NCBI GenBank assembly: GCA_963767225.1
Contig: CAVYDD010000007.1
Location: 53,887 to 117,886 of the forward strand
Length of the DNA: 64,000 bases
From: an uncultured Acidobacteriota bacterium
Lineage (GTDB): Bacteria > Acidobacteriota > Terriglobia > Acidiferrales > UBA7541
Reading direction: 5' to 3'
A model generated the notes under the pieces. The model was given only the letters and a program-made list of their open reading frames with translations, searched no databases and was not told the origin of the DNA. Every line of letters begins with the position of its first letter. The stretch's first letter is position 1. Made by a program: the position numbers and the translations under genes. Shown here one piece after another: positions 24,401 through 58,596 of the stretch.

Positions 24401-24901
24401 GTTGCGCCAAGTCACGATAATCGCGGCCGGAGAGCGGGAGGGTTTCCAGGTCTTTTTGGTTGATGACCTGGTTGATGCCGGCGGTGGAGGTGTCGATGGG
24501 TCCAGCCTCCAAGGCGGACACCGTGACGGTTTGCGTCTGACCCTTAACGGGGAGGGTGATGTCGAGAGCAAGACTGGCGCCAATGTCCACAACCAGGTCC
24601 GTAACAATGGTAGAGGCGAAGCCTTCTGCCTCTGCCTGGACCTTGTACGTGCCCGGCAGTAACTGAGCAAAATCGTACAAGCCGCTGACGTCGGTGGTGA
24701 GTTCGCGCTTATAGCCGGTGGAAGGATTGGAGATGGTTACCTTGGCGCCCGCCACGATGGAGTGCGAGGTATCATAAACGAAGCCGCGGATTTCGCCGCG
24801 CTCGACGGATTGCGCAGGCGCGCCGGGAGCAGCGCAGAGAAGACTCGCGAGCGAAAAGACAACGGCCACTGCTGCCAGAAACACATTCTTCACCATTTTC
24901 A
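21489..24901 (-). CDS. TonB-dependent outer-membrane receptor with N-terminal carboxypeptidase-regulatory-like domain (Acidobacteria type)
   Basis: Start at MKMVKNV (ATG 24901) with RBS AGGGAGAG. Signal peptide, CarbopepD_reg-like region (GFVYDTSHSIVAGAKVTISNPSTGYKRELTTDVSGLYDF...PGTYKV), plug region, long beta-barrel, and C-terminal ...AGVKFVF. Confidence 0.85.
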
Positions 24902-24981
24902 TTGTTACTCTCCCTCTGGGTGTGGAGCTATCGATCGCGAGATTTGATTGGCCCGAACGAGCGAACGTTTTGTTTTTCATT

Positions 24982-35784: not shown

Positions 35785-37620
35785 GTGACGTTTCGGACCA
35801 GGTTGTTCGTCAACTTTATGCTGGCGCTGCTGCTGTCGGTGGGATTGATCGCGGCGGGGGTCACCGTCGTGACGCGGCGGGCGTTTGAGGAAATGAATCG
35901 CGAGCACAGCGATGCACTGCTGGCGCAATTTCAGCGCGAGTTCGAGCGGCGCGGCAGCGAAGTGGTGCAAAGCGTGAAGGGCATCGCCGACGCGGAGTCG
36001 ACCGTGCGGATGGCGATAGATTTGAGCCGGCCGAACGCGGATGTGTCGGTATATGTGAACGACGCGCACGGCGTTTCGAAATCGCACCAGTTGGACGTGC
36101 TGGATTTCGTGAACAACGACGGGACAATTATTTCCTCGCAGGAGTCCCCGGCGCGCTTCAGCTACAAAATGGAATGGGTGACCAAGCCACAGGATTGGCC
36201 GGCGCTCGGGCCGTTCCTGACGAAACTCGATACCGAAAACGGGCCGGCGCTGGCGCTGCTGTCTGTTGCTACGGTGCGCGTGGGTGACCGGGATTTGTAC
36301 GTGGTGGGCGGTGAACGATTGGGCAAGGATTTTCTGGCTTCACTGGTGCTGCCGGGGAACATGCGCGCGCTGTTGTATTTGAATCTGGATCCGGAATTTC
36401 AAGATGCGAATTTGCTGGACGCGAATGGGCCGACGCCGGATGCGGATCGGTTCGCGCCACTGGTAGCGAACGAAAAGGCGGACCCGGTCGAGCAGTCCAC
36501 CGAGATCCGCTGGAGCATTGACGCGGCGAGTGCGGAGATGTTTCACGCGTTGCCTTTGCAGGGGCGGCAGAAGGAATTACTGGGCGTGTTATTTGTAGGC
36601 AGCTCGCAGCGCGCCGTCGTGAGTTTGGAGCGGCGGATTCGCTGGCTGGCGTTGGGAGTAGTGGCGGTGGGATTGTTGTTTGGGCTGATGTTGAGCTGGT
36701 GGGGCGCGGCGCGGGTGACGCGTCCGGTGCAGAAACTGGCGCAGGGCGCACAGGAAGTGGCGGATGGGAATTGGAACGCGCGCGTGAATGTGCGCGGGCG
36801 CGATGAAGTGGGGCAGCTGGCGACCTCGTTCAACAAGATGACGGAGCAGTTGGTGGAGCAGCGCGACAAACTGGTGCAGGTGGAGCGCGTGGCGGCGTGG
36901 CGGGAACTGGCGCGGCGGCTGGCGCACGAATTGAAGAATCCGTTGTTTCCGCTGCAGACGACCGTGGAGAATTTGCGCAAAGCGCGTGAGCAGGATTCCG
37001 GGCAATTCGAGGAAGTTTTTCAGGAGTCGACGGGCATATTGCTGGCGGAGATTGAAAACCTGAAGGCGATCGTGGGGCGCTTCAGCGATTTCGCGAAGAT
37101 GCCGCAGCCGGAATTGAGCACGATGAACCTGAACGAGATCGTGCGCACGGTGGTAAAGCTTTTCGAAGGACAATTCAGCGCGGTGGGGCGCCCGGCGATT
37201 ACTCCGGAGCTGCATTTGGAGGATGAACTGCCGCAGCTCCAGGCGGACGCGACGCTGCTGCACCGGGCCATCGAGAACCTGGTGCTGAACGCGATGGATG
37301 CGATGCCTGCGGGCGGCGTGCTGATGTTGCGCACGGCGCACAAGGATGGCGAAGTGACGCTGGAGATTTCGGATACTGGCACGGGACTAACGCCGGAAGA
37401 ATCCGAGCGGCTGTTCACGCCGTATTACACGACCAAGCAGCACGGAACTGGGCTGGGGCTCGCGATCGTCCAGGCGGTGGTGGCGGATCATGGCGGGCGA
37501 ATTTCTGTTGAGAGCGAGACAGGCGTTGGGACTTCGTTCCATATTGACCTGCCGATTAAGCCGCCGCACAAGGCGCAGACTTTTCCGATGGTCTTCGAGA
37601 AAAAAGAAGACGAGGCGTAG
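35785..37620 (+). CDS. sensor histidine kinase (NtrY-like: 2 TM, periplasmic sensor, HAMP, HisKA, HATPase)
   Basis: GTG start with AAAGGAA RBS. TM1 at the N-terminus, TM2 at ~aa 290, followed by HAMP, an H-box (AHELKNPLFPLQTTVENL), and N/G1/G2 boxes (NAMDAM...DTGTGL...GTGLGLAIV). Confidence 0.85.
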   Translation: MTFRTRLFVNFMLALLLSVGLIAAGVTVVTRRAFEEMNREHSDALLAQFQREFERRGSEVVQSVKGIADAESTVRMAIDLSRPNADVSVYVNDAHGVSKSHQLDVLDFVNNDGTIISSQESPARFSYKMEWVTKPQDWPALGPFLTKLDTENGPALALLSVATVRVGDRDLYVVGGERLGKDFLASLVLPGNMRALLYLNLDPEFQDANLLDANGPTPDADRFAPLVANEKADPVEQSTEIRWSIDAASAEMFHALPLQGRQKELLGVLFVGSSQRAVVSLERRIRWLALGVVAVGLLFGLMLSWWGAARVTRPVQKLAQGAQEVADGNWNARVNVRGRDEVGQLATSFNKMTEQLVEQRDKLVQVERVAAWRELARRLAHELKNPLFPLQTTVENLRKAREQDSGQFEEVFQESTGILLAEIENLKAIVGRFSDFAKMPQPELSTMNLNEIVRTVVKLFEGQFSAVGRPAITPELHLEDELPQLQADATLLHRAIENLVLNAMDAMPAGGVLMLRTAHKDGEVTLEISDTGTGLTPEESERLFTPYYTTKQHGTGLGLAIVQAVVADHGGRISVESETGVGTSFHIDLPIKPPHKAQTFPMVFEKKEDEA

Positions 37621-37626
37621 CCGCCT

Positions 37627-39024
37627 GTGTCCGTAAAAGCCCACATATTGATTATTGATGATGACGCGAACACGCTGGCGTCCTTGGCGCGTGCGTTTCG
37701 GTTGGCGGGGCATGAGGCGACGGTTTGCGACAATGCGGCACGGGCGCTCGAGTTGGCGAAAGCCGAGCGCTTCGATCTGATTCTTTCCGATGTGGTGATG
37801 CCGGGGCGCGACGGGATCGCTCTGCTCGAAGATTTCAAGGCGATCGGACTAGCTTCGCCGGTGGTGATGATGTCGGGGCAGGCTTCGATTGCCATGGCGG
37901 TGAAGGCTACGCTGCTGGGAGCGAGCGATTTTCTGGAGAAGCCCATTTCGAGTGAGAAGCTCTTGCTGACGGTGGAGAACGCGCTGCGCGTGCGCCATCT
38001 GGAGGAAGAAAATCGCGATCTAAAGCGGCGATTGGGGCGGCATCACATTGTGTGGGCCAGCGCGGCGATGAAGGAAGTGATGGCGCAGGTGGAGCACGTG
38101 GCCGCGAGCGAAACGCGGGTTTGCATTCGCGGCGAGACGGGGACGGGGAAAGAATTGATTGCGCGGACGCTGCACGAGAAAAGTCCGCGGCGTGGTGGGC
38201 CATTTATTTCGCTGAATTGCGCGGCGGTGCCTTCGGAGTTGATGGAAACCGAATTGTTCGGACACGAGAAGGGGTCGTTTACGGGGGCGGCTTCGCGGCA
38301 CACCGGGAAATTCGAGCAGGCGCATCATGGTACGTTGTTTCTGGATGAGATCGGCGACATGCCCATGACTATGCAGGCGAAATTATTGCGCGTGCTGGAA
38401 GAAGGCGAGATCGAGCGAGTGGGCGGGGACAAGCCGTTCGCAGTGGATGTGCGCGTGGTGGTGGCGACGCATCGCAATTTGGAAGAGCAGGTGCGGCAGG
38501 GAACTTTTCGCGAGGATTTGTATCATCGCGTGTTTGTGTTTCCGATTGTGTTGCCGCCTTTGCGCGAACGGCGCGAGGACGTGCGCGTGCTGGCTGAGCA
38601 TTTCGTGCGGCAGTTGGAGGAGCAGAATAATTGGAAGCTGCGGAAGTTGTCGGCGGAGGCGATTGCGGAGCTGGAGCGTTATTCATGGCCGGGCAATGTG
38701 CGGGAACTGCGGAATGTGGTGGAGCGCGTGTTGCTGCTGGCGCCCGGGGATTTGGTAGAGGCGGAGACGGTGCGGCGGGCGTTGCCTGGCGCAGCGGTGA
38801 GTGGTGGCGTCGGCGGGAAAGCGCCGTCGGGAACTGCCATGGAGACCGGGATGTTGTCGCAGCGGGTCGAGGCTTTCGAGCGTGAGACGCTGGTGGCGGA
38901 ATTGAAGCGGCATCATCATCACATGACGAATACTGCGAAGGCTTTGGGTTTGGAGCGCAGTCATCTATATAAGAAGTGCCAGCAGCTAGGAATTGATTTG
39001 CGGGCGGTACGGCAGACAGAATAG
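37627..39024 (+). CDS. sigma-54-dependent response regulator (NtrC/NtrX family: REC-AAA+-HTH)
   Basis: REC domain (ILIIDDD...DLILSDVVMPGRDG), AAA+ Walker A GETGTGKE, GSFTGAA sigma-54 contact motif, C-terminal Fis-type HTH. Confidence 0.9.
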   Translation: MSVKAHILIIDDDANTLASLARAFRLAGHEATVCDNAARALELAKAERFDLILSDVVMPGRDGIALLEDFKAIGLASPVVMMSGQASIAMAVKATLLGASDFLEKPISSEKLLLTVENALRVRHLEEENRDLKRRLGRHHIVWASAAMKEVMAQVEHVAASETRVCIRGETGTGKELIARTLHEKSPRRGGPFISLNCAAVPSELMETELFGHEKGSFTGAASRHTGKFEQAHHGTLFLDEIGDMPMTMQAKLLRVLEEGEIERVGGDKPFAVDVRVVVATHRNLEEQVRQGTFREDLYHRVFVFPIVLPPLRERREDVRVLAEHFVRQLEEQNNWKLRKLSAEAIAELERYSWPGNVRELRNVVERVLLLAPGDLVEAETVRRALPGAAVSGGVGGKAPSGTAMETGMLSQRVEAFERETLVAELKRHHHHMTNTAKALGLERSHLYKKCQQLGIDLRAVRQTE

Positions 39025-44527: not shown

Positions 44528-47158
44528 TTACTGGCGTAAGGAGCTGACGGGGACGTGTTCGAGAATTTCGCGGATTTTGGTTGCGAGTACTTTCAGGTTG
44601 AACGGTTTTTGCAGGAAGGCCATTCCACCCTCGAGGACGCCGTGACGGAACACACTGTCGTCTGTATAGCCGGAGATGTATAGAACTTTCAGATCGGGGC
44701 GAGTGGGGGCGAGGCGCGCAGCGAGTTCGCGGCCGCTCACCCGAGGCATCACTACGTCGGTGATGAGCAAGTGAATTTTTCCTTTGTGGGCGGCAGCGAT
44801 TTCCAGTGCTTGCACGCCGTCGGCTGCGTCGAGCACGTGATAGCCGCGAGCTTTGAGATATTCGCTGACGAGTTCGCGTACGCTTTGTTCGTCTTCGACG
44901 AACAGAATTGTTTCGGTGCCAGGTTCGTGGCCGCTGGTGATTTTTTCCGGCACTTTCTTTTCCATCGGCGCTTGCACCATCGGCAGATACACTTTGAACG
45001 TAGTGCCGTGGCCGACCTCGCTGTACACCCAGACGTAGCCGCCGCTTTGCTTGACGACGCCGTAGACGGTGGCGAGGCCCAGGCCGGTGCCGCGGCCTTG
45101 TGATTTGGTGGTGAAGAATGGCTCGAAGATGCGGGCTTGGGTGGCGGCGTCCATGCCGATGCCGCTGTCGCTGACGGTGAGCATGACGTAGGGACCGGGG
45201 TCAACGACGGCGTGCTCGGTGGCGTAATCGCGGTCGAGTTGCACGTTGGAAGTTTCAATGGTCAAGCGGCCACCGTCAGGCATGGCATCGCGCGCGTTGA
45301 CCACCAGGTTCAGGGCGACTTGCTCGATCTGACTGGGGTCCGCCTTTACGCGGCCGAGGTTGGCGCCGGGCAGAAACGCGAGTTCGATATTGGCGCCGAT
45401 GACGCGCGAAACCATCTGAATCATTCCGGCGACGACTTCGTTCAAGTCCAAGACGCGCGGCTGCAGCACTTGCATGCGGCTGAAGGCCAGTAACTGGCGG
45501 GTGAGACCGGCGGCGCGCTCAGCGGCCTGCTGGATTTGTTCGACGTTTTGGCGCGCGGGACTTTGGCGATCGGCAGTGCTGGCGGGCAAGCGATCGAGGA
45601 GCATCTCGGCGTGGCCCTTCACTACCATCAGTAGATTGTTGAAATCGTGGGCGACGCCGCCGGCAAGTTCCCCGACGGCCTGCAGCTTTTGCGACTGGCG
45701 GAGTTGGTCGGCGAGCTGTTTGCGGTCGGTGATATCAAGCGCGACGCCGATCACGCCGATAATTTCGCCATCAGGTCCACGCAGCGGGCGCACGTGAGAT
45801 TCGAAGATGCGCTTCTGCCAGTGCAGTTCGTAGGTGAGAGATTCGCCAGCAAGGGCGCGCCAGTGCGCGTTGATGGAAGGGTGCTGAGCGTCGTTGGTCT
45901 CAAAATATTCGGCGAGGGTCTTGCCGGTGAGGCCGCCGGATTTTACGCCCAGCGAATCCAGGCCCGCGCCCATGCTGGAGGTGTAGCGCAGATTTTTGTC
46001 GGTGGTCCACAGGACGGCGGGCATGCGCTCGATCATCATGGCCAGGCGCGCGCGGCCCTCGTGGCGTTCGATCTGAGATTTTTCGAGGTCTTCGAGCATG
46101 CCGTTGATGGCGACGCCGAGGAATGCCAGTTCGTCCTGGCCCGGCACATCCACGCGCGTCGAAAGATCGCCGCTGGCGCCGATTTGCGTGATGTTCTCGG
46201 TGAGGTTCGCGATGCGCGAGATGACGAAACGCTCGAGCAAGTAGAGGGTGGCCGCGCCGAAAACGAATCCCGCAGCGACTAGCAGCAGCAGAAATTGCAC
46301 CAGGCTGGTGTGGCCCTGCTCGTAAATGGTGCGGGGGAGCAGGACGCGGATGATGACGGCGGGGCGGCCATAAATGTCGTTCAAGACCTGATAGGCTGCG
46401 AGGGACTGGCTGTCCAGCGGGGCGATGAAATTCGGTGCGCCCTTGGAGATGGCCGCGGCTGCCGCTTTGAAATCGGGGCTGAGGGAGGAGGAAGAAAGCG
46501 TCTGCGCCTCGACGGGCATGAGCGTGAGGTCGGCCAAGTGCTGAATTTCGGCGGCGTCGAGCAGGTGGCCCATGATCATGGTTCCGGCAATTGGACCGGT
46601 GGCGTCGCTGGCGAGAATGGGGCGGGCATCCACTAGCGCGGGCCCGCCAGGAAGATCTAGAACTCCGGCGATCTTGCTGTGGGCATCTTTCACGCTGAGG
46701 AGCAACGCGCCGGACTTCAGGTGATCATCTAGGCCCGCGGGAACGGGCATCTCGCCGCCGTGGGTGAGGTCAAAGCCCGTGGAAAAGAGCTTGCGGCCCT
46801 GGGTATCGAGGATCACGACGAAGCTGATTTTCAGCTCCTGAAAGGTTGGGGCCGGGAATTCAGTCTTGATATAACTTGGCCGCTGGCCGCGGGCAAATTC
46901 GTAGGTCAAATCCCACGTCGCGTATTCGCTGGTGGTCTGGTCGAGGGTATTCAGTTCGTTCGCCAGGGCGCTGGAGGCCCGCGCGATGTCTCGGCCGGCG
47001 AAATCCTCTTCGAGGATGGCGAAGCCGCGCATGAGGACAATGCGCGAGAGCATGAACAAGCCGCCGACGAGGCCGAGCATGGTAATCCCGATGATCAGCA
47101 AAGTCTTGCGCCGTAGAGAGGACGGCACACGAAGTTGGGCTATTTGGAGGGGTCCCAA
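44528..47158 (-). CDS. hybrid sensor histidine kinase/response regulator (extracytoplasmic sensor, HAMP, PAS, HisKA, HATPase, REC)
   Basis: 876 aa. TM-bounded N-terminal sensor, H-box [20 protein letters not shown]-boxes DSGIGMD...[11 protein letters not shown], and a C-terminal receiver (ILFVEDEQ...[17 protein letters not shown]). Confidence 0.85.
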
Positions 47159-47364
47159 GGGAGGCCTCAGTTGGTATTATATCGGCTGCGGGGTGGCTGT
47201 GGATTTTGCGGTGTCTTAGTCGTACACGGGTGCATTGGCGCTGGCGGTGCTGGGAAGGATGTCGTGGCGGGTGGCGGGGAAGTTTATGCTGGATACATCT
47301 CGCCGGTCGTGGGCAGGCATCTTTAGTATTTAACCCGTATGGAATCGCGTGGAAGAGGCGTCAG

Positions 47365-48333
47365 ATGAAAAAGAGTTCGCTTCGCTTGCTGCAGGCCCTT
47401 CTATTGGTGATGGCGGCTGGCTGCGCGCTTTCTGCAGTAGCGCAGGATGCTGGGCCGATGTCTCCCCCGCCGGCTGCGGCGGCTGCTCCCGCTACCGTAC
47501 CCGCGAGCCAGCCTACGGCGCGGAAACAGCAGGATGGATCTGGTGGCGCGCCTGCTTCGGGCACGCCTGAGGCTCCGGCAGCGACGTCTGGGTCGAACCC
47601 TGTTGGTTCGCCGGCGACTGGACCCCCTGCGAATGCTACTGCGGGTGCGCCGGCGGCTCCTGGTGCTCCGGCCGTGGCGTCGGCGGCCAAGATCATGGTT
47701 CCTGCGGGGACGCACATTCCGCTGGTACTGCATAACGCGGTGTCCACGCGTAGCGCGCGGCCAGGCGACCCGGTGTACTTCGAGACTTTGTTTCCGGTGA
47801 TGATTGACGGGAAAGTGGTGATCCCTGCGGGATCGTACGTGAGCGGAGAAGTCACAGAGTCGAAGCGGCCGGGGCGTGTGAAGGGCCGCGGCGAATTGAT
47901 GATCAAGTTGACGACTATGATTTTGCCGAACGCGTACATGGTGAACCTGAACGCGGTGCCTAGCAATGCAGAGACGGGAGGCAACGAGACTACCGACAGC
48001 GAAGGCAAGATCATCGGAGACTCGGAAAAGGGGCACGACATCGGCACGATCGCTAAGACTACAGCGGCCGGCGCGGGCATCGGGGGATTGGCGACGCAGA
48101 GCGGGCGAGGCGTGGGAATCGGCGCGGCGGCCGGGGCGGCAGCGGGTTTGGCGGCGGTGCTGCTGACGCGCGGGCCGGATGCGGAGATGCCGCGCGGGTC
48201 TACGGTGGAAGCGGTGATTGACCGTTCGCTTTATTTGGATGCGGACAAGGTTCAGTTCACGGGGCCGGGGCAGGCTTCGTCGCTGGCTGGCCCGGCGAAT
48301 CGCGAGCCGGTGCGCAATCGCGATCCTTTTTAG
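47365..48333 (+). CDS. secreted protein with Pro/Ala-rich linker and C-terminal TrbI/VirB10-like beta-barrel domain (orphan)
   Basis: ATG 47365. Signal peptide MKKSSLRLLQALLLVMAAGCALSAVA and a ~100-aa P/A/G/S low-complexity region. Then VPAGTHIPLVLHNAVSTRSARPGDPVYFETLFPVMIDGKVVIPAGSYVSGEV...MILPNAY, which matches the TrbI/VirB10 C-domain pattern (PAGTxIPxxL...IPxGS...ILPxG). Confidence 0.45.
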   Translation: MKKSSLRLLQALLLVMAAGCALSAVAQDAGPMSPPPAAAAAPATVPASQPTARKQQDGSGGAPASGTPEAPAATSGSNPVGSPATGPPANATAGAPAAPGAPAVASAAKIMVPAGTHIPLVLHNAVSTRSARPGDPVYFETLFPVMIDGKVVIPAGSYVSGEVTESKRPGRVKGRGELMIKLTTMILPNAYMVNLNAVPSNAETGGNETTDSEGKIIGDSEKGHDIGTIAKTTAAGAGIGGLATQSGRGVGIGAAAGAAAGLAAVLLTRGPDAEMPRGSTVEAVIDRSLYLDADKVQFTGPGQASSLAGPANREPVRNRDPF

Positions 48334-49577: not shown

Positions 49578-50619
49578 CTAATTCACGGTCAAGGCAATCG
49601 TGCTGGTATGCGTCGGGTTTCCGCTGGTTCCTGACACCGTCACATTGTAAGTTCCAGGTGGCGTATCGGGAGTCGTTCCTCCTCCGCCTCGACCGGTGCC
49701 CCCACCACCGCAAGAGGAGATCATCAGGATAAGAACGACCGCCCCGACCATCGCTGCGATCCGACGCCTTCTCGCCAGGAGCGGCATCGCGGCCGTTCCG
49801 AGGCCAACGACGCAAAGCGCTGCAAAGGGAAATTCTGGAAAGGAATAACTGTCGGGACTTGTGAACGCTGCGACCGAAGGAGCCGTGGTAGTGACGGCTA
49901 CGTTCACAGTGACTGCAGCTGAGCCATCGAGTGTCACGGAAGATTTCGCAACCGTGCACGTTGCTTGCGACGGAGCTCCGGTGCAGGGCAGCTGCACCTT
50001 TCCGGAGAATCCTCCACCGGAATTTAGAGTGAGAAGCGACGTCGCGGTATTTGCTGCATTAATCGAACTGGAATTCGGATCCAGCGACATCGAAAACTCC
50101 AGCGGTCCGGCCCATCCAGGTCACCGGGAGGACTTGAGTTCGGGGAGCAAAATTGTCGGTAAAGCTGATACTGCCGTTGCTGACCCCGTTCGCCGTCGGA
50201 GTGAAGCTGACGTTAGCTGTGCAACCATGACCTACGGCCAACGGGCCCGCGCAGTTGTCGGGTTCAGTGAAGTTTCCCGTGATCTGGGGTGACGATCGCC
50301 AGCGGCGCGTTGCCGGTTTTGTAGTCAGCTTTGGGAGCATAGGTTCCGTTCGCTCTACTCAAAAGCACCGAAGCGGGTTGTCGTTTTGGTTGGTCACGGC
50401 AAAGTTGAGAATCCCGTCGCCGTTGAGATCGGCCAGCGCGATGCTGGAAGGATTGTTACCTACTCCGAGCGCGCTTTGGTTGTAGCGGTAGCCTTGCGCG
50501 GACGTCGTCCTTAGCAGCGGCCCGAAGCCCAACAGCAGTACAGTTGACGCCCAAAGAATTCGCTTCCATCGCTTTGGCGGTTTCATCCAGAAAGTTCTCT
50601 GGTGCCCTAACAGGGTCAT
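49578..50619 (-). pseudogene. remnant of a secreted FG-GAP repeat / Ig-like domain protein, in three frame-shifted pieces
   Basis: Three consecutive ORFs in different frames: 50619-50359 (signal peptide + one FG-GAP repeat ADLNGDGILNFAVTNQNDN), 50340-50059 (Ig-like C..G..C segment), and 50090-49578 (Ig-like segments ending GTYNVTVSGTSGNPTHTSTIALTVN). The total is far too short for a beta-propeller protein. Confidence 0.45.
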
Positions 50620-50816: not shown

Positions 50817-51422
50817 TCAGAGCGAGTCAACGAGTTCGACGGAGAGGAGGCGGGCTTTTTGGGCCAGGGTTTGGGCGCGGGACCAGTCGCCGGCTTTGCC
50901 GGCTTCTTCGGATTGAGCGAGGAAGCTGCGAATTTTTTCCTGGAGATCCAGCTGCGCGGCATTGAGGACTTTGCCGTTGGCTTGTTGAAGATTTTTCTGG
51001 GCGACATTGGCGTCTTCGCCGCTGCTGCGGCGCAGGCTGGCTTGATCGCCGGGCGAAAGTTGCGGCGAGATTTGGGGCGGCGGAGTGCGCGTGGGCTGCT
51101 CGGCTTGTGTATCGGAGGATGCTTCGGTGGGTTGGCGGTGCGGAGGGGGCGGCAGCTTCGTGTGCGTCGGCTCAACCGGCAGCGGAGCGGCGGCGGTGGC
51201 GGTGGGAGTCGGCGGAGGGGCTACGGTTTCGACCGGCGGCAGAGCGTCGGTGTCTGGCGCGACGTTGGTGATGGGTTTGGAATCGGCGGTGGAGGGCGCG
51301 GGCGCAGCCGCGACGGGCGCGGCGGTTTTCACGAGCGAGTGGGAACACCCCGCCATGCTGTAAGACAGCCCACTGAGAAAAAAGGCTGCCAGCAACACGG
51401 ATTCCGTTTTTCGGCTGGGCAT
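50817..51422 (-). CDS. Pro-rich lipoprotein, last gene of HK-RR operon
   Basis: Start at MPSRKTESVLLAAFFLSGLSYSMAGCS (lipobox MAGC). Pro/Thr/Ala-rich linker, then a conserved-looking C-terminal ~70 aa. Confidence 0.5.
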   Translation of the reverse strand: MPSRKTESVLLAAFFLSGLSYSMAGCSHSLVKTAAPVAAAPAPSTADSKPITNVAPDTDALPPVETVAPPPTPTATAAAPLPVEPTHTKLPPPPHRQPTEASSDTQAEQPTRTPPPQISPQLSPGDQASLRRSSGEDANVAQKNLQQANGKVLNAAQLDLQEKIRSFLAQSEEAGKAGDWSRAQTLAQKARLLSVELVDSL

Positions 51423-51464
51423 TGATCTTCTAGCTTCTAACCTACGGCTTGAAACTTTCAACTC

Positions 51465-53363
51465 CTATAATTTCTCTTCCGCAAACGGCTGGCCGAAATC
51501 CCGATGTTTGCCAGCCGGCGCTTCCAGGAAACGCGCCAGCGGCAATTCCAGGCGGAAGGTAGTGCCGCGTCCAGGCTCGGATTCGAATTCTATCCGACCG
51601 TTGTGCAACTGCACAAACCGAAAAGTGTTTGCCAATCCGATGCCGGTACCTCCAGGACGGGTTGTAAAGAACAGCTGAAAGATTTTCTTCTGATTTTCGG
51701 GCGAAATTCCCGTTCCGGAATCGGCAACGGCGATGACGGCGAAATCACCGTTGCGGCGCAAGCTGAGGGCGATGGTGCCGTCCGGCCCGGTGAAGTCGCT
51801 GGCATTGAGCAGAAGATTGAGCACGGCCTGGTGAATGAGCTGGCCATCCACCAGCACGTGCGGAAATTCGGAAGGCAAATCCACGCGGAGTTCGATGCCC
51901 GCTTTGGCGATGCTAGGCCGCGCGGCTTCCAGCACGTCGTCGAGCAGGATGCGCAGGTCGGTCTCTTCCAGCTTGATTTCCAGCGGCTTGGTGAAATTCA
52001 GGAAAGTTTTCACGGCGCGGTCGAGGCGGTCAATTTCGCTATCGAGCATTTTCACGGCCTGCTGCGGTTCCGGCTCGACAGGCATATTGGCTTTCAGCAC
52101 TTCCAGCCAGAGGCGCATAGAGTTGAGCGGATTTTTTACTTCGTGCGCGACTCCGGCGGTGACACGGCCTAGCGCGGCGAGGCGCTCGGAGACTTGCAGC
52201 TGGTTGCCGATGCGCTCGAGCGATTCCACGTCGCGCAAAGTGATCAGAGCGCCCATTGCGATGCCGTGCTCGCGAATCACCTGGGCACTGAGGCCGATGC
52301 GCTGGGAGCCGTGCAGGCCGGCGAGAGTGATTTCCGCGTTTTCGATGTGACCGACTTCGTCACCGTGGATGCCGAGAGCTTCGCGCGCGGGATGGCCGGG
52401 AGGGAAAATTTCGCTGACGCGCAATCCGCGCAGGACTTCGGAGCGCTGGCCGAGGAATTTCTCAACGGAGGGGCTAACCAACACCGCGTTGCCGCGCGCG
52501 TTGAAGAGTAGCAGGCCATCTTCCAGGCCGCCCATGACTTGATCGAGATTTTCGCGCAGAGTGCTGAAAATTTCGCGCACGTCTCTTAACTGCTTTCCAA
52601 TGCCAATGATTTTGGTGCTTACCGCGCCGAATTCGTCGCCGCGCTCGACCGGCTCGAGATCGAATTCGCCGGCGGAGATGCGGTCCAGTTGGGCAGAGAT
52701 GCGATCAATCGGAGCGAGCGAGGCGCGGCTGACGACCAGCGCGAGAAGAGTCGAGAGCAGCACAGAGGCCAGCGCGTAATAGCCGGCGGAAACCAGGCCG
52801 GGCGAGATTTCATTGCGGATCAGCGCTGAAGAAAGGCCGATGCGAATGTCGCCGAAAGGCCCGTTGATATTGAATGGGAGGGAATCTTCGTACACCAGCG
52901 GCGGCCCGTAGAGAGTGCGCAATTGCTGGAAAAAACCGCCGCGGACGAGCGAATCCACGGGCGGGCGCTGGGCAATTTTCTCGCCGCGCAGACTGGCGTC
53001 GCTCGAGACCAAGACGATTCCGTCGAGGTCGCTGATGGTGATTTCGTAGATCGTGGGCGAATAACCGATCGCCGACTCCATCACGGAGTTCAGCGTGCTG
53101 CTGTTGTCCAGCGCGCGTTGTACGTAGGCGCGCAAATCGGCGGGGCTGGAGGAGGCTGGAGATTCGCCGCGAGCGGCGGCGTCCGTCATGGAATTTTGGC
53201 AGGCGAGATAAATTTGCCGTGCGACGAAGCGCGCGCGATCATCGGCTTGGCGCAAAGTCTGGCGTGTGAGTCGCGCGATGTAAAGGCCGGAGACCGTGGT
53301 GACGACTGCCAGAACCAGCAGGGAAGTCGCCAGCGTGAATTTAGTTTTCAGGCTGAGACGCAT
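51465..53363 (-). CDS. sensor histidine kinase (TM, periplasmic sensor, HAMP, PAS, HisKA, HATPase)
   Basis: H-box GVAHEVKNPLNSMRLWLEVL and G-boxes DSGTGISPE...GTGIGLANTF. N-terminal TM-bounded sensor domain. Confidence 0.85.
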   Translation of the reverse strand: MRLSLKTKFTLATSLLVLAVVTTVSGLYIARLTRQTLRQADDRARFVARQIYLACQNSMTDAAARGESPASSSPADLRAYVQRALDNSSTLNSVMESAIGYSPTIYEITISDLDGIVLVSSDASLRGEKIAQRPPVDSLVRGGFFQQLRTLYGPPLVYEDSLPFNINGPFGDIRIGLSSALIRNEISPGLVSAGYYALASVLLSTLLALVVSRASLAPIDRISAQLDRISAGEFDLEPVERGDEFGAVSTKIIGIGKQLRDVREIFSTLRENLDQVMGGLEDGLLLFNARGNAVLVSPSVEKFLGQRSEVLRGLRVSEIFPPGHPAREALGIHGDEVGHIENAEITLAGLHGSQRIGLSAQVIREHGIAMGALITLRDVESLERIGNQLQVSERLAALGRVTAGVAHEVKNPLNSMRLWLEVLKANMPVEPEPQQAVKMLDSEIDRLDRAVKTFLNFTKPLEIKLEETDLRILLDDVLEAARPSIAKAGIELRVDLPSEFPHVLVDGQLIHQAVLNLLLNASDFTGPDGTIALSLRRNGDFAVIAVADSGTGISPENQKKIFQLFFTTRPGGTGIGLANTFRFVQLHNGRIEFESEPGRGTTFRLELPLARFLEAPAGKHRDFGQPFAEEKL

Positions 53364-54747
53364 CTCGTCGCCCCGCCTCGTATTCTTTTAATTTATTGTG
53401 CAGAGTTTTCAGGCTGATGCCAAGAAGTTCGGCGGCGCGCGTTTTGTTCTGACTGGTGGCGGCCAGGGTCTGCACGATCAGTTCGCGTTCGACGGCGTCC
53501 ACCGTGGTGCCGATGGGAAAGCGCAGTCCGCCCAGGCCCGAGGTGATCATGGCGGTGACGCGGCCGAATTCGGCCGGCAGATGCTGGCGCGCGACGGTGC
53601 CGCGGTCCGATGCGATGGCGGAACGCTCGAGCACGTTGCGCAGCTCGCGCACATTTCCTGGCCATGGATAGGATTTGAAGAGTTCCATGACGTCGGTGCC
53701 GACGCCGGTGACTTTCCGTTCGTGCTTGGCGGAAATATCGGCGAGCAGGTGATCCACTAACAGCGGCAAATCCTCTTTGTGCTCGCGCAGCGGAGGGAGA
53801 TGGATGTTGAAGACGTTCAGGCGGAAATAAAGATCCTGGCGCAGATGTCCATCGGCGACGGCTTGTTCCGGATTCTTGTTGGTGGCGGCGACCACGCGGA
53901 CGTCCACGGGCGTTTCGACTTTGCTGCCGAGGCGGCGGACTTTGTGATCTTCCAGGACGCGGAGAAGTTTGGCCTGCGTTTGCGCGGGCATTTCGCCGAT
54001 TTCGTCGAGGAGGAGCGTGCCGCCATCGGCCAGTTCGAAGCAGCCGATGCGGCGTTCGGCCGCGCCGGTGAACGCGCCTTTCTCGTGGCCGAAAATTTCG
54101 CTTTCCATCAGCGATTCGGGGATGGCCGAGCAATTGATCGCGACGAACGGGCGATCGGCGCGCGGCGAAAGCAGGTGAATCGAGCGCGCGACCATTTCTT
54201 TGCCGGAGCCGGTTTCGCCGGTGATGAGAACCGAGGCGGTGGAGGGCGCGGCGATTTCCACTTGGCGCATTACATCCTGCATTGGCGCGGAAGTGCCGAC
54301 GAGCGTGCCAAGTTTTCCGGCGGCGCGCAGGTCGCGGGTGAGGGCTACGACGGCTTGCTGATTACGCACGAGGCCGAGCGCGCGTTCGAGTAACGCGCGC
54401 AGCACGGGAGGCTTCAGCGGTTTTTCGATGTACCAGTAGGCGCCCGCTTCGATGGCTTGCACGACGCGTTCGTCGCTGCCGCGACCAGTGATGATGATGA
54501 CGGGAATGCGCAGAATGTCGTCGCCCAACTGCTTGAGCAGGTCGAGGCCGTTCATGCCGGGAAGCTCGACGTCCGCGAGAATCAGGCTGGGCTGGAATTC
54601 CTGAAATTTTGCGAGGGCTTCTTCACCGCTAGCGACGCCGAGAATTTCCCAGTTCCATTTGCGCAGCAGGGCTTCGTAGCCTTTGCGGGCGTTGTCTTCA
54701 TCTTCCACGATCAGGATGCGCTGCTGGTTAGGAATCGGGATGGTCAT
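53341..54747 (-). CDS. sigma-54-dependent response regulator (NtrC family)
   Basis: REC domain (ILIVEDEDN...LILADVELPGMNG), GETGSGKE Walker A, GAFTGAA sigma-54 contact motif, Fis-type HTH. Overlaps the HK start by 23 nt, indicating translational coupling. Confidence 0.9.
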   Translation of the reverse strand: MTIPIPNQQRILIVEDEDNARKGYEALLRKWNWEILGVASGEEALAKFQEFQPSLILADVELPGMNGLDLLKQLGDDILRIPVIIITGRGSDERVVQAIEAGAYWYIEKPLKPPVLRALLERALGLVRNQQAVVALTRDLRAAGKLGTLVGTSAPMQDVMRQVEIAAPSTASVLITGETGSGKEMVARSIHLLSPRADRPFVAINCSAIPESLMESEIFGHEKGAFTGAAERRIGCFELADGGTLLLDEIGEMPAQTQAKLLRVLEDHKVRRLGSKVETPVDVRVVAATNKNPEQAVADGHLRQDLYFRLNVFNIHLPPLREHKEDLPLLVDHLLADISAKHERKVTGVGTDVMELFKSYPWPGNVRELRNVLERSAIASDRGTVARQHLPAEFGRVTAMITSGLGGLRFPIGTTVDAVERELIVQTLAATSQNKTRAAELLGISLKTLHNKLKEYEAGRRDASQPEN

Positions 54748-55358
54748 CGGAACTTTCAGCCTACCAGCAGTCTAGCGGAAATCCAATAGAGTGGAGCGGC
54801 GGGGCCGCGAGCGGATAGGACACGGGACGTTTCCTGAAGTGGGATAGGCTAACAGCGCGAGTTGGGCAATCGGAGGATCGCCTGGTACGTAACGGCTTTA
54901 TTGTCAGCAGAGACGGGCGGTGCGGTCGGCCATCTTCTTGCAGCCGCTTTCCTAGGTGAACCCTGGAAGAGAATCGAAAGGCTGTGCGCAATGACATTCA
55001 CGTGCGCATGCAGTTTTGCATCTCGCGGCGGCAGCCGCCGGAGTTCCATGGCGGGGCGGTTGCGCGACATCTCGCGCACCCGCATTTTGTTCCGCTGGGA
55101 GATATCATTCGAGATTGGAACAACGCTCGAGCTGGCATCTTGTTTGCCGGCGGACAAGGAGTTCCATTCCTGCGTGCTGGCTCGCGCGACGGTGAAAACG
55201 CTACGCGGCTGGGAATTGCCGGGTGAACCTACGCCGCTTTTCAGAATTGCGGTGACCATTGACCGAATTGCTTTCGAGCAGCCTTCTACTTCGACCGCCG
55301 CGCAAGTTGCCCGGTGATTGACGCCCTGCCGCCTACCTTTTCTGTCAGTCCGACGCGT

Positions 55359-56030
55359 CTAGGCTCTGCCGAGGTGCAGCGGCCGCTCGAGAACCAGTTC
55401 GAGCTTCATATTTTGCGGCAGGGTGAGCTCCTGGCCCAGGCCCGAGGTGATCATGAATGCAGTGGCGGCGGAAATGGCCGCACCCATCGCTGCATCTTGT
55501 TTATTTTTCGAGGCAATCCCAGGCTCGGCGCCGATGAATGCGGCTTCGGCGGCGGCGAAAGCCGCGTCTTCTTGTTTGCTGGTGGTGGCGCGGATTTCGC
55601 CTTCGCGATCGTAGAGCACGCGAATGGAATGAACGCCTGGGGCGTCAATCAGATCGGCTACCAGAGGTATCCAGCCGGTGGAACTGCGGATCTCGTCGAA
55701 AGTGAGCCAGAGGCGCGCGCGACCTACTTTTCCAGCGGGCTGAATCTTGTCAATGTGGCCGCGGATTTGCGCTCCGGAGGGAAGGGTGGCGCCTTCGGCC
55801 GAAGCGATAGGTTCGAGGGTGCGCGCCAGGAATTGCTTGCCGACTTTATCTTCTTTAGTGGAAATACTGGTTTGCAGGGATATCAGGAAACGGGTGCCGC
55901 GTGAGGCGGCGTCGGGTGGCGCGTCTTGGGATTGGGAAGCGGGATCCTGCGACTGTGGTTGCGCGTGGGCTGCTGCGCCTGAACTCAGCACAAGAACCGA
56001 CGTAAATGCGAAAATCCTCCAGCGTTTCAT
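55359..56030 (-). CDS. secreted TrbI/VirB10-like domain protein, paralog of 47365..48333
   Basis: Start at MKRWRIFAFTSVLVLSSGAAAHA (ATG 56030). The core GTRFLISLQTSISTKEDKVGKQFLARTLEPIASAEGATLPSGAQIRGHIDKIQPAGKVGRARLWLTFDEI aligns position-by-position with the 47365 protein (GT.I/F.L...ST+..+.G..F...L.P....G..+P.G+.+.G.+...+P.G+V.GR..L.+......). Confidence 0.45.
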   Translation of the reverse strand: MKRWRIFAFTSVLVLSSGAAAHAQPQSQDPASQSQDAPPDAASRGTRFLISLQTSISTKEDKVGKQFLARTLEPIASAEGATLPSGAQIRGHIDKIQPAGKVGRARLWLTFDEIRSSTGWIPLVADLIDAPGVHSIRVLYDREGEIRATTSKQEDAAFAAAEAAFIGAEPGIASKNKQDAAMGAAISAATAFMITSGLGQELTLPQNMKLELVLERPLHLGRA

Positions 56031-56415: not shown

Positions 56416-58596
56416 TTGAAATTGCTAGAACGTGCCGCCATTTTGGTTGTGGCTGTTCTTTTGGTGGTAGCGGCGGCGTTCGCCGACGATACCAAGCCTC
56501 GTGTGGCGGACGGGACCGCTAGCGCAGGTGCGGCGCCAGGGGCGACATCCAGCAGCGATACGAGCGCCAAGACTGCCACCGCTGCGACTGATTCCTCGAC
56601 GGCGAGTGATGCGTCCGATGCAACCACGACCCCTGCGAGTTCCGCAGTGGCCGCGACAGTGCCGACTCCGGCGCCTTCGGCAATGCCCAAGTCCAATTCT
56701 GGCGCGGCGCAAGCGAAAGGCGGAATGAGCGCGAATGACGAATCTGAGCTCCCGAATTTTACGCCGATGCCCGCGCTGGATGGCAACCCCGGACTATTCA
56801 CGCTGGAAACCGGCGAGACGCTGCCTAAGCACGGCTGGTCCCTGGGCATCGGACTGAACAAATTTTCGCGCATGCCGGGCGACATTACTTCGCTGCAGCT
56901 GGTGCCCTCACTGGGTTATGGCGTCACGAACTGGCTCTCGCTGTTTTATCAGATCAATTCGTACGATTACATTCACGTGGGCGCGCCCAGCCTGCTGAGC
57001 CTGGCGCCGGTGAACGCGGCGAATCCGCAATATCAGAACACGATTTACAATTCGATTATTCCATCCACCGGATTTCCGCCTGCTTATGTGGAGGATGCGC
57101 CGTTCGCGTCGCACAACGGCAGCGGCTTGGGCGAAATGGATTTGGGATTCAAGATTGGGTTGCTGTCCGAACGGCGGGGCAAGCCAATCAGTCTTTCGAT
57201 TCGCAATGATTTCTATCTTCCGACGAAGACCGGGCTGACGAGCCTGCTGGCGGACCAGGTACAATACGGAAAGTTCAATTATGGAGTGGGGTTGGAGGCC
57301 AGCAAGACGTTCTTTCACGGCGGAATTACGGCGACGGCGAATTGGTCGTACCGGTTCACGCGCGATTCCGGCTACACAGCGCTCGTTGGTGGCGTGCCCG
57401 AAATCGTGATGCTGAAACTTGCGGATCAGATGCAGGTGGGCGCGGGGCTTTTGATTTTTCCGACGAAGCGATTTCAGATTATGACGGAGTACGACGGCAC
57501 GATTTTCGTGGGCAACGGAATTCAGAACACCAGCTTCGGCGCGCGCGACCCCGTGGACAATATTATTGGCTTCCGGTTGTACGCGTGGAAGTGGGCGGCC
57601 TTGGACATGGGCTATCGCTATTCGCTGGACCTGTCCAATCATCGCGACCGCAACGGATTCATTATTAAAGTGGGCGTGGCGCACTGGCCTTCGAAGCCGC
57701 TGCCGCCCGACGTGGTGACGGCTTCGTGCGCGGTGGACAAGGCTGCGGTAAGGGAAGGGTCGGGGGATTACATCACGGCGAATGTCAGCGCGACGGATGC
57801 CAATGGGCTTCCCTTAACGTATCAGTGGACCGCGACGGGCGGTTCGATTGATGGGGCGGGACCTTACGTGCGCTGGAATTCCACCGGGGCTGCTGCGGGG
57901 AGTTACGTGCTCACGTCGCGCGTGGATAATGGCGGGGGCAAGACGGCGAGTTGCACAGCGAACGTGACCGTGCAGCCGAAACCGGCACCCCCTGCTCCGA
58001 CGATGACGTGCACGGCGGATCGTTCGACGGTGCTGGCTGGGGAACGAGCCGAGATTACCGCCAATGTGAACGACGCGTCCGGGACGGCCATTCGATTCAC
58101 GTGGCAGGCCAACGCAGGACAGATCATCGGCGCCGGCTCGATTGTGCAGTTTGATACATCGGGGCTCGCGCCGGGAACTTATACGGTGACTGGGCGCGCG
58201 GAAAATGAATTGCGCGGCGCGTGTGATTGCACGGCGGCTGTAACGGTGCAGGCGCCACCGGCGGCGGCGCAGGCGAGCAGGGTGAATGCTTGCGAATTCG
58301 CTCCTGGCAGCGCGGGCGCGGACAATGTGTGCAAGCGCAACCTGGACGACGTCGCGGTGCGTTTGCAGAGCGATCCACGGTCGAAGGTGGTGCTGGTGGG
58401 TTCGGCGGACCTCAAAGAACCGCGGGCCGCGAAGCTGGCGGGCGAACGCGCGGCGAGCTGCCAGAAATATTTGCAGGAGAAGAAGGGCGTGGACGCTTCG
58501 CGGGTGGAGGTTCGCACCGCGGCAGGAGTGGCGGGCGCCGGTCAGGAAAACCGGCGGGTGGATATAGTGTTTGTTCCGGATGGCGCATCCTATTGA
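56416..58596 (+). CDS. OmpA-family outer-membrane protein: beta-barrel N-domain, two PKD/Ig-like domains, OmpA_C peptidoglycan-binding domain
   Basis: TTG start 56416 with RBS GAGGAGG and signal peptide MKLLERAAILVVAVLLVVAAAFA. Amphipathic beta-strand region ending in aromatic residues, two ~85-aa repeats (TCTADRSTVLAGERAEITANV...GTYTVTGRAEN), and an OmpA_C-like tail (VLVGSADLKEP...RRVDIVFVP). The ORF track allows starts back to 56092. Confidence 0.65.
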   Translation: MKLLERAAILVVAVLLVVAAAFADDTKPRVADGTASAGAAPGATSSSDTSAKTATAATDSSTASDASDATTTPASSAVAATVPTPAPSAMPKSNSGAAQAKGGMSANDESELPNFTPMPALDGNPGLFTLETGETLPKHGWSLGIGLNKFSRMPGDITSLQLVPSLGYGVTNWLSLFYQINSYDYIHVGAPSLLSLAPVNAANPQYQNTIYNSIIPSTGFPPAYVEDAPFASHNGSGLGEMDLGFKIGLLSERRGKPISLSIRNDFYLPTKTGLTSLLADQVQYGKFNYGVGLEASKTFFHGGITATANWSYRFTRDSGYTALVGGVPEIVMLKLADQMQVGAGLLIFPTKRFQIMTEYDGTIFVGNGIQNTSFGARDPVDNIIGFRLYAWKWAALDMGYRYSLDLSNHRDRNGFIIKVGVAHWPSKPLPPDVVTASCAVDKAAVREGSGDYITANVSATDANGLPLTYQWTATGGSIDGAGPYVRWNSTGAAAGSYVLTSRVDNGGGKTASCTANVTVQPKPAPPAPTMTCTADRSTVLAGERAEITANVNDASGTAIRFTWQANAGQIIGAGSIVQFDTSGLAPGTYTVTGRAENELRGACDCTAAVTVQAPPAAAQASRVNACEFAPGSAGADNVCKRNLDDVAVRLQSDPRSKVVLVGSADLKEPRAAKLAGERAASCQKYLQEKKGVDASRVEVRTAAGVAGAGQENRRVDIVFVPDGASY

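Follow-up and report, generated by a model that had tools for sequence, protein, structure and literature searches.

Two predicted exported paralogs with a VirB10/TrbI-type C-terminal fold, found outside type IV secretion loci in Acidobacteriota

The locus

The DNA considered here is a stretch of 64,000 nucleotides (nt) from an uncultured Acidobacteriota bacterium of the order Acidiferrales (assembly GCA_963767225.1, contig CAVYDD010000007.1, positions 53,887 to 117,886 of the forward strand), the whole of which is called the window in what follows. It has the appearance of chromosomal DNA, with a GC content of about 57-63% in 2-kb windows, and holds two intact open reading frames (ORFs), genes A and B, whose products are predicted to share the C-terminal domain of VirB10/TrbI, a component of the outer-membrane core of type IV secretion systems (T4SSs). 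Both ORFs had been picked out, at coordinates that we find again, by a previous inspection of the letters alone (the sequence-only reading), which took them for paralogs with a TrbI/VirB10-like C-domain, devoid of T4SS genes and each lying next to a two-component system. The two genes and their parts are as follows.

47365..48333, plus strand: gene A, 322 amino acids (aa), predicted exported protein resembling the VirB10 C-terminal domain, stop codon included
47365..47442, plus strand: signal peptide of A, aa 1-26, cleavage predicted between AVA and QD, read from the sequence
47443..47688, plus strand: low-complexity Ala/Pro/Gly/Ser linker of A, aa 27-108, predicted local distance difference test score (pLDDT) 55-63
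47689..48015, plus strand: first part of the A beta-barrel, aa 109-217, pLDDT 82-98, TrbI alignment over aa 112-217
48028..48165, plus strand: two-helix glycine-zipper hairpin of A, aa 222-267, helices 222-244 and 247-267, at the position of the VirB10 antenna
48178..48240, plus strand: closing beta-strands of the A barrel, aa 272-292, strands 280-285 and 289-292, pLDDT 93-97
48241..48330, plus strand: conserved C-terminal tail of A, ending in NREPVRNRDPF, predicted disordered
55359..56030, minus strand: gene B, 223 aa, predicted exported paralog with a VirB10 C-terminal-domain-like fold, stop codon included
55443..55574, minus strand: two-helix hairpin of B, aa 153-196, helices 153-173 and 177-196, pLDDT up to 91

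Kinship and anatomy of the two proteins

A and B share 22% identity over 221 columns (BLASTP, E=1e-6), and profile-profile comparison of the alignments of their two families with hhalign gives a probability of 94.9% (E=4.8e-8, 174 columns). Moreover, a hidden Markov model (HMM) of the A family, built from 84 diverse members, matches B with E=4.3e-28, and the reciprocal B-family HMM matches A with E=4.4e-8, all of which bears out the paralogy already proposed and marks the two proteins as distant paralogs. No third paralog was found in the window with either HMM. The motifs that the sequence-only reading had quoted for both proteins do not occur literally in B, which has RGTRFLISL and LPSGAQIRGHI in their place and no LPNG, the form VPAGTRFLVSL being still present in some divergent B orthologs.

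At the N-terminus of A, about eight residues precede a hydrophobic segment in which a VirB10-like anchor had initially been seen. VirB10 is held in the inner membrane by a transmembrane helix that follows a cytoplasmic tail. The segment of A is instead predicted to be a cleavable Sec signal peptide: a basic n-region, a hydrophobic h-region and a cleavage motif AxA followed by Q[DEQ] recur in most of the approximately 90 orthologous and distant N-termini listed, and the bitopic topology of a cytoplasmic tail, a single transmembrane helix and a Pro-rich region is not what the sequence predicts for A. A lipoprotein was considered for A on account of an AAGC lipobox and rejected, Cys20 not being conserved and being replaced by Leu or Phe in many orthologs; the signal peptide of B has no Cys, so that neither protein has a lipobox.

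The linker that follows in A, described beforehand as Pro-rich, contains 26 Ala, 17 Pro, 10 Gly and 8 Ser among 81 residues (aa 28-108) and varies in length and sequence between orthologs; that of B is short. The first part of the A barrel is nearly invariant among 22 orthologs and includes a conserved basic loop, KRPGRVKGRGE (aa 167-177), the counterpart of which in B is AGKVGRARL. The tail of A (...GPANREPVRNRDPF) is invariant across close orthologs, with a terminal PF in 119 of 120 close members of the family and a terminal Pro followed by Phe, Tyr, Leu, Trp or Ile in 78 of 120 distant ones. This ending of Pro plus an aromatic or hydrophobic residue is not retained in family B, and in A it may serve as a docking or sorting motif.

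Likeness to VirB10/TrbI in sequence and fold

Judged by curated sequence models, the likeness to VirB10/TrbI is faint. The Pfam TrbI model (PF03743) scores 25.8 bits against A, under its gathering score of 35, aligning aa 112-217 with profile positions 2-107 of 188, and does not match B even at E<=10. The same model is matched by 57 of the 84 diverse family members at E<=0.01 (best E 3.6e-9). The NCBIfam VirB10/TrbI models match neither A nor B at E<=10, one distant relative being nevertheless named 'TraB/TrbI/VirB10 family' by NCBI. Sequence searches of the PDB with A, B or the profiles A1, A2 and A3 retrieved no VirB10 chain; a Legionella Dot/Icm OmpA-family protein, matched over a glycine-zipper stretch (E 0.007), was all that they found. 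Only the Pfam HMM and structure reveal the relationship to VirB10.

On the structural side, AlphaFold, given the 84-sequence alignment, models A as a barrel (aa 109-217 and 272-292) with pLDDT values of 82-98 and two helices (222-244 and 247-267) with values of 61-82, while the model of B is of medium overall quality (mean pLDDT 66). At E<=1e-3, Foldseek returned 23 matches, all of them chains from entries of T4SS outer-membrane complexes or of ComB10, and C-terminal domains of the VirB10/TrbI/ComB10 type are the top and only strong structural matches of both A and B. In matches 1-16 and 18-20 of this search, 196-219 columns were aligned to targets of 188-221 residues, that is, over approximately the full target length, and because of this span the modelled hairpin is aligned with the VirB10 antenna. 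The C-domain that had been proposed on the basis of motifs is thus borne out by the predicted fold, a C-terminal beta-barrel with a two-helix antenna, and the models indicate that A and B share the fold of VirB10/TrbI C-terminal domains, even though by curated sequence criteria, with both proteins below the Pfam gathering threshold, they are not VirB10/TrbI.

The C-terminal domains of VirB10, TrbI, TraF(pKM101), TrwE, ComB10 and CagY have this same barrel with a two-helix projection at the same topological position, and A resembles VirB10 also in having a Pro-containing flexible linker N-terminal to the barrel. In contrast with VirB10, the predicted proteins have a cleavable signal peptide in place of the cytoplasmic tail and inner-membrane anchor, their hairpin is a glycine or alanine zipper, the basic loop of A is longer, an extra conserved Pro-Phe tail closes A, and no virB/trb genes are found next to either.

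The helical hairpin and its zipper

Few columns are invariant or nearly so over the 84 diverse members, and those of G236, G240, G253, G257 and G261 of A belong to them. The corresponding GxxxGxxxG pattern occurs in 120 of 120 close and 120 of 120 distant A members and in 119 of 150 cluster representatives, many of which are fragments. In this line, the Pfam model Gly-zipper_YMGG matches 22 of the 84 diverse members, and Gly-zipper_OmpA also matches family members. In the B hairpin the ladder is made of small residues, Ala and Gly, in conserved columns; the strict GxxxGxxxG is present in only 3 of 120 B-family members, and the NCBIfam glycine-zipper model YiaD gives a weak match in B. The helix-loop-helix with a conserved GxxxGxxxG ladder is therefore a property of A, and B has an Ala-based version of it.

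A helix-loop-helix with GxxxG repeats is what A has in common with the glycine-zipper outer-membrane lipoproteins of the SlyB/Pcp, YfgH and YmgG/OsmB type, which are described as envelope-stress factors under two-component control. The homology shown between A and B and the SlyB-type proteins does not go beyond the zipper: unlike those, A and B are not lipoproteins, and their hairpin is placed inside a VirB10-type barrel, whereas the SlyB-type zipper precedes a small periplasmic domain.

Absence of type IV secretion genes

A Pfam scan of 33 long ORFs of the 64-kb window, covering all those of at least 300 aa without overlap by a longer one, found metabolic, regulatory and envelope functions and no T4SS family. 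The flanks of 12 annotated loci, from close orthologs and six distant members, are equally free of T4SS Pfam families; the T2SSF-family gene of one distant locus is a component of type II secretion or type IV pili and not of T4SSs. For genuine virB10 genes, the surrounding order virB2-3-4-8-9-10 is strictly conserved (PMC3548315). Neither the window nor the 12 annotated loci show the virB8-virB9-virB10 order with VirB4 nearby, and no VirB9/CagX-family gene was seen in any locus examined. Neither A nor B forms part of a T4SS locus in the window or in the loci of related genomes, which agrees with the absence of such genes noted before and leaves the ordinary explanation foreseen at that time, a complete T4SS adjacent to these genes, without any T4SS family in the window or in the 12 annotated loci.

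Size, distribution and constraint of the family

More than 5472 homologs of A were found at E<=1e-3 among 8000 candidates scored, and 613 homologs of B in public data. When 1.84 billion cluster representatives were scanned in full for the A core domain (HMMER), 5852 clusters matched at E<=1e-3, 1221 (at 50% identity) at 1e-10 and 156 at 1e-30, and a pattern scan with one genome per species located relatives carrying a KRPGRVKGRG-type motif in at least 597 species. Named hosts are mainly Acidiferrales/Acidoferrales, Terriglobales, Terriglobia/Acidobacteriia and Bryobacteraceae, the close relatives of the window being Candidatus Acidiferrales; a few bins with family members are labelled otherwise (Verrucomicrobiia, Baltobacteraceae, Cybelea, Acidimicrobiia). 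Among orthologous loci, the median identity of the A core is 78%, versus 67% for the neighbouring hybrid kinase and 58% for the neighbouring DAO-family oxidoreductase, and A is above both in 68 of the 68 species that have the two neighbours. The constraint on family A, a large family, is unusually strong.

The proteins of the family are labelled 'hypothetical protein' or, automatically, 'type IV secretion system protein VirB10' or 'TraB/TrbI/VirB10 family', and because of these automated labels the fold similarity was already implicit in databases. Orphan TrbI-like genes have also been noted in cyanobacterial genomes (PMC3141437), where the proteins, called 'conjugation TrbI-like', are likewise encoded by conserved chromosomal genes outside conjugation loci, a likeness to A and B that is drawn from annotation-level mentions alone (PMC3141437). 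The novelty claimed in the sequence-only reading is reduced by these precedents. We found no literature on orphan VirB10-like or glycine-zipper proteins of Acidobacteria.

Some relatives have a different architecture: in the members of about 400 aa P0272, P0280, P0302 and P0309, the barrel is preceded by an extra N-terminal domain of about 150 aa (DFSGxWxLN...TKWEGxxL...ERW) for which there is no Pfam match.

Neighbouring genes and two-component systems

Conservation of the neighbourhood was counted in the fetched flanks of 80 species-level Acidiferrales loci, median identities being those to the window proteins.

44528..47158, minus strand: hybrid histidine kinase with CHASE4-HAMP-PAS-HisKA-HATPase-receiver domains (Pfam), upstream of A and divergent from it; 68 of 80 species, median identity 67%
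Downstream of A, convergent: DAO-family oxidoreductase; 79 of 80 species, median identity 58%
50817..54747, minus strand: cluster downstream of B, made of a sigma-54 response regulator, a histidine kinase and a putative lipoprotein (Pfam)
53341-54747, minus strand: sigma-54 NtrC-type response regulator (Pfam), downstream of A beyond the DAO gene and within the 8-kb flank; 43 of 80 species, median identity 89%
51465-53363, minus strand: histidine kinase (Pfam)
50817-51461, minus strand: putative Pro-rich lipoprotein, no Pfam family above noise
55359..56030, minus strand: B, upstream of the sigma-54 regulator on the same strand; 36 of 80 species, median identity 61%
56416..58596, plus strand: envelope protein with PKD and OmpA domains (Pfam), divergent from B; ortholog there in 20 of 80 species

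The convergent DAO gene, itself unrelated, is found beside A more constantly (79 of 80) than the kinase (68 of 80). Of six distant members of the family, three have a kinase or regulator gene within 7 kb, its position varying, and three have none; since the neighbourhoods of distant members differ in this way, the adjacency of A to a kinase is a matter of clade-level synteny and not a trait of the family. Proximity to two-component genes comes cheap in this region, because the window holds a third such system, a HAMP-HisKA-HATPase kinase and a sigma-54 regulator at 35785-39024 on the plus strand. Orthologs of this pair are found upstream of A in 58 (regulator) and 37 (kinase) of the 80 species, and on the public contig its regulator is split into two gene calls.

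The situation of B is different. Regulator, kinase and lipoprotein are all present in 47 of 86 fetched Acidiferrales-type loci, and B lies upstream of them on the same strand in 36 of the 43 species with the sigma-54 cluster, never having been seen without it in the fetched flanks. Counted in the 86 loci L001-L086, with duplicates of the window contig among them, the gap between B and the regulator gene has a median of about 115 nt and is of at most 200 nt in 28 of 40 cases. The association of B with the sigma-54 cluster is a conserved, operon-like arrangement. Of the proposed link with two-component systems it is thus the part concerning B that stands, while for A the kinase is outdone by the DAO gene; and B, said to lie directly upstream of the sigma-54 operon, does so in most species with the cluster but is separated from it by 611 nt in the window. 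Within this gap there is an opposite-strand ORF at 54862-55317 (plus strand), where the public contig has an 89-aa gene call; many related species have only about 65-200 nt between B and the regulator. A by-eye impression that this ORF was PilZ-like was dropped, as it has no Pfam match.

The kinase at 51465-53363 has two hydrophobic segments, read from the sequence, which flank a loop of about 155 aa. Systems of the GlrK-QseG-GlrR type encode together a histidine kinase, a small lipoprotein and a sigma-54-dependent regulator of the NtrC family. We take the set at 50817-54747 to recall these GlrK(QseE)-QseG-GlrR(QseF) envelope signalling operons, from which it differs in gene order and in having a lipoprotein without similarity to any Pfam family; the E. 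coli system is not known to include a B-like gene. The association of the PKD/OmpA protein with B is only positional.

Regulatory DNA

47159..47364: divergent intergenic region between the hybrid kinase gene and A, with conserved blocks

Aligned with MAFFT, 83 distinct orthologs of this upstream region (87 minus four excluded) have blocks in common that are 80-99% conserved. Within them lies a near-palindrome, GTGTCTTAGTCGTACAC, at 47211-47227; this conserved near-palindromic element (GTGTCYTAGTCGTACAC) is accompanied by GCATCT repeats nearer the A start, and the 47211-47227 region is a candidate operator or promoter. A sigma-70-like promoter for the hybrid kinase is found at 47203-47176 on the minus strand. 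No Rfam family occurs anywhere in the window. A sigma-54-type site, TGGCGC-N5-GTGCT at 47236-47251, was discarded as being at chance level (37 sites versus 33.4 expected in the window), and the -24/-12 sigma-54 motif is found upstream of A in 0 of 78 orthologs and upstream of B in 0 of the 20 loci with a placeable start, 19 of which gave the full 350 nt.

Proposed role and alternatives

We propose, with a probability of roughly 0.5, that A and B, homologous to the C-terminal domain of VirB10/TrbI in the outer-membrane core, are exported by Sec, stand alone and do not work in a T4SS. As the sequences and models show, each consists of a signal peptide, a flexible linker, long and Ala/Pro-rich in A and short in B, and a VirB10-type beta-barrel, with a hairpin of two small-residue helices of about 20 residues inserted between barrel strands at the place of the VirB10 antenna. 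After export, the hairpin would enter a membrane, by analogy with the VirB10 antenna and SlyB-type lipoproteins, and the barrel would then face the periplasm. The VirB10 antenna and the glycine-zipper lipoproteins SlyB and YfgH end up in the outer membrane, and for this reason the outer membrane is the more likely destination. The very slow evolution of A suggests self-assembly, possibly into a ring like the O-layer of VirB10, or several partners, and in Terriglobia A probably serves as a constitutive part of the envelope. B would be a clade-specific paralog, probably co-transcribed with the sigma-54 regulator, the kinase with its predicted periplasmic loop and the lipoprotein just downstream, and may most likely be an envelope-side accessory or output of this adjacent signalling module.

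Several observations weigh against this proposal. Membrane insertion, the choice between outer and inner membrane and oligomerisation are points that we infer, the A hairpin has a pLDDT of only 61-82, and the B model a mean of 66. The helices are not ideal transmembrane segments, as helix 1 of A contains Lys and several Thr and those of B contain Glu and Asp. The negative result for T4SS genes is confined to the 64-kb window and the 12 annotated loci. As for the signalling connection, 611 nt separate B from the regulator gene in this window, and the absence of the sigma-54 motif upstream means that no regulatory link of A or B to the neighbouring sigma-54 regulators is shown.

Among the alternatives, one keeps the hairpin in the inner membrane, as a two-pass anchor presenting the barrel at the periplasmic face, where B could modulate the periplasmic sensor of the adjacent kinase; the helices would leave SecYEG laterally after signal-peptide cleavage, with their short loop (QSGRG) in the cytoplasm. 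Helix lengths of 23 and 21 residues, the periplasmic location that topology assigns to both flanking segments, an Arg in the inter-helix loop that fits the positive-inside rule and the encoding of B beside a kinase whose two hydrophobic segments surround, by eye, a loop of about 155 aa are all consistent with such an anchor. It is nonetheless unlikely in our view, given that helix 1 of A is weakly hydrophobic and that similar Gly/Ala-rich helices, those of the VirB10 antenna and of SlyB-type proteins, pass the inner membrane on their way to the outer one.

Somewhat harder to accept is a soluble state of A and B, in the periplasm or secreted, in which the hairpin provides for protein contacts or oligomerisation and the barrel is a reused binding scaffold. 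The charged residues of the B helices and the moderate confidence of the hairpin models would suit a soluble protein, as would the basic loop KRPGRVKGRGE and the Pro-Phe tail, which resemble interaction motifs; against it, few features of the superfamily are as conserved as the GxxxGxxxG ladder, which matches Pfam glycine-zipper families of membrane-embedded envelope proteins. An extension of the outer-membrane proposal, in which family A would be the sole subunit of a T4SS-independent, homo-oligomeric outer-membrane ring, its zipper hairpins forming an alpha-helical pore or cage, B a sigma-54-coupled envelope sensor, and the family either the ancestor of the VirB10 of T4SSs or its exaptation, is likewise doubtful.

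That the two proteins are pore-forming toxins or bacteriocins of the glycine-zipper kind, such as Caulobacter CdzC/D, exported against competitors, is very improbable. Glycine zippers are typical of pore-forming peptides and proteins of contact-dependent killing, but A is a single gene at a fixed chromosomal locus and of unusually high conservation, whereas toxins usually diversify fast, and no immunity or type I secretion system genes are adjacent, the predicted export being through a Sec signal peptide. Least credible is that A and B are ordinary TrbI/VirB10 subunits with the remaining conjugative or effector T4SS genes elsewhere in the genome: pipelines do name relatives 'type IV secretion system protein VirB10', MPF-T conjugation systems can occur in Acidobacteria (PMC3548315) and the search was confined to the window and the 12 annotated loci, but the locus is chromosomal and syntenic in 80 species among housekeeping neighbours, the 12 annotated loci lack T4SS Pfam families, virB10 is normally fixed in the virB8-9-10 order (PMC3548315), a cleavable signal peptide is predicted where a cytoplasmic tail and transmembrane anchor would be expected, and A is under the TrbI threshold, with B unscored and neither matching an NCBIfam VirB10/TrbI model.

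Significance

A and B carry a known fold in a new architecture, which is uncharacterised and is widely mistaken by annotation for part of a T4SS. Few proteins besides VirB10 are known to cross the outer membrane with alpha-helices, and VirB10 has been studied almost only within T4SS machines. Here, a chromosomal and slowly evolving family (at least about 1200 clusters and at least about 600 species, mostly soil Acidobacteriota where named) keeps what the models predict to be the VirB10 fold without the machine, which would give the VirB10 module an independent life in the cell envelope. Family A could in this regard offer a simple, one-gene system in which to study the route of helical hairpins to the outer membrane and their insertion there, and its importance would rise further if the model of a stand-alone outer-membrane ring were true. 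On the practical side, the potential for conjugation or secretion in soil metagenomes will be overestimated where these genes are automatically labelled 'type IV secretion system protein VirB10', and the cluster of B, regulator, kinase and lipoprotein is a concrete candidate for an envelope-sensing pathway in an abundant and poorly studied phylum.

Other observations in the window and in distant loci

Between the DAO and lipoprotein genes, a run of short minus-strand ORFs at 49578-50619 (170 aa at 49578-50090, 93 aa at 50059-50340 and 86 aa at 50359-50619) looks like a fragmented or frameshifted FG-GAP-type gene; the 86-aa ORF has a weak FG-GAP match, and the 170-aa piece is without ortholog in other loci. 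FG-GAP/ASPIC-UnbV repeat proteins, one of them with N-terminal TPR repeats, are encoded at 3057-6749 (minus strand) and 26495-28393 (plus strand), and a protein with CarboxypepD_reg and an outer-membrane-protein beta-barrel at 21489-24980; envelope or secreted proteins of these kinds are usual in acidobacteria and have no relation to the finding on A and B.

In a distant branch of the family, whose named relatives are Bryobacteraceae, a conserved gene for a protein of about 260 aa lies immediately upstream of the family member on the same strand, at the following places in three of the loci.

L087, 6180-6950: upstream gene of about 260 aa
L089, 6119-6940: upstream gene of about 260 aa
L090, 6145-6948: upstream gene of about 260 aa

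Their size had suggested tandem paralogs, an idea rejected because the A and B HMMs do not match them. These proteins, absent from the window, are 36-45% identical to one another, and most have a signal-peptide-like N-terminus; they share an ending of the YAGxxPGxxGLYQIN type, a segment that is probably that of Solibacter-type secreted proteins.

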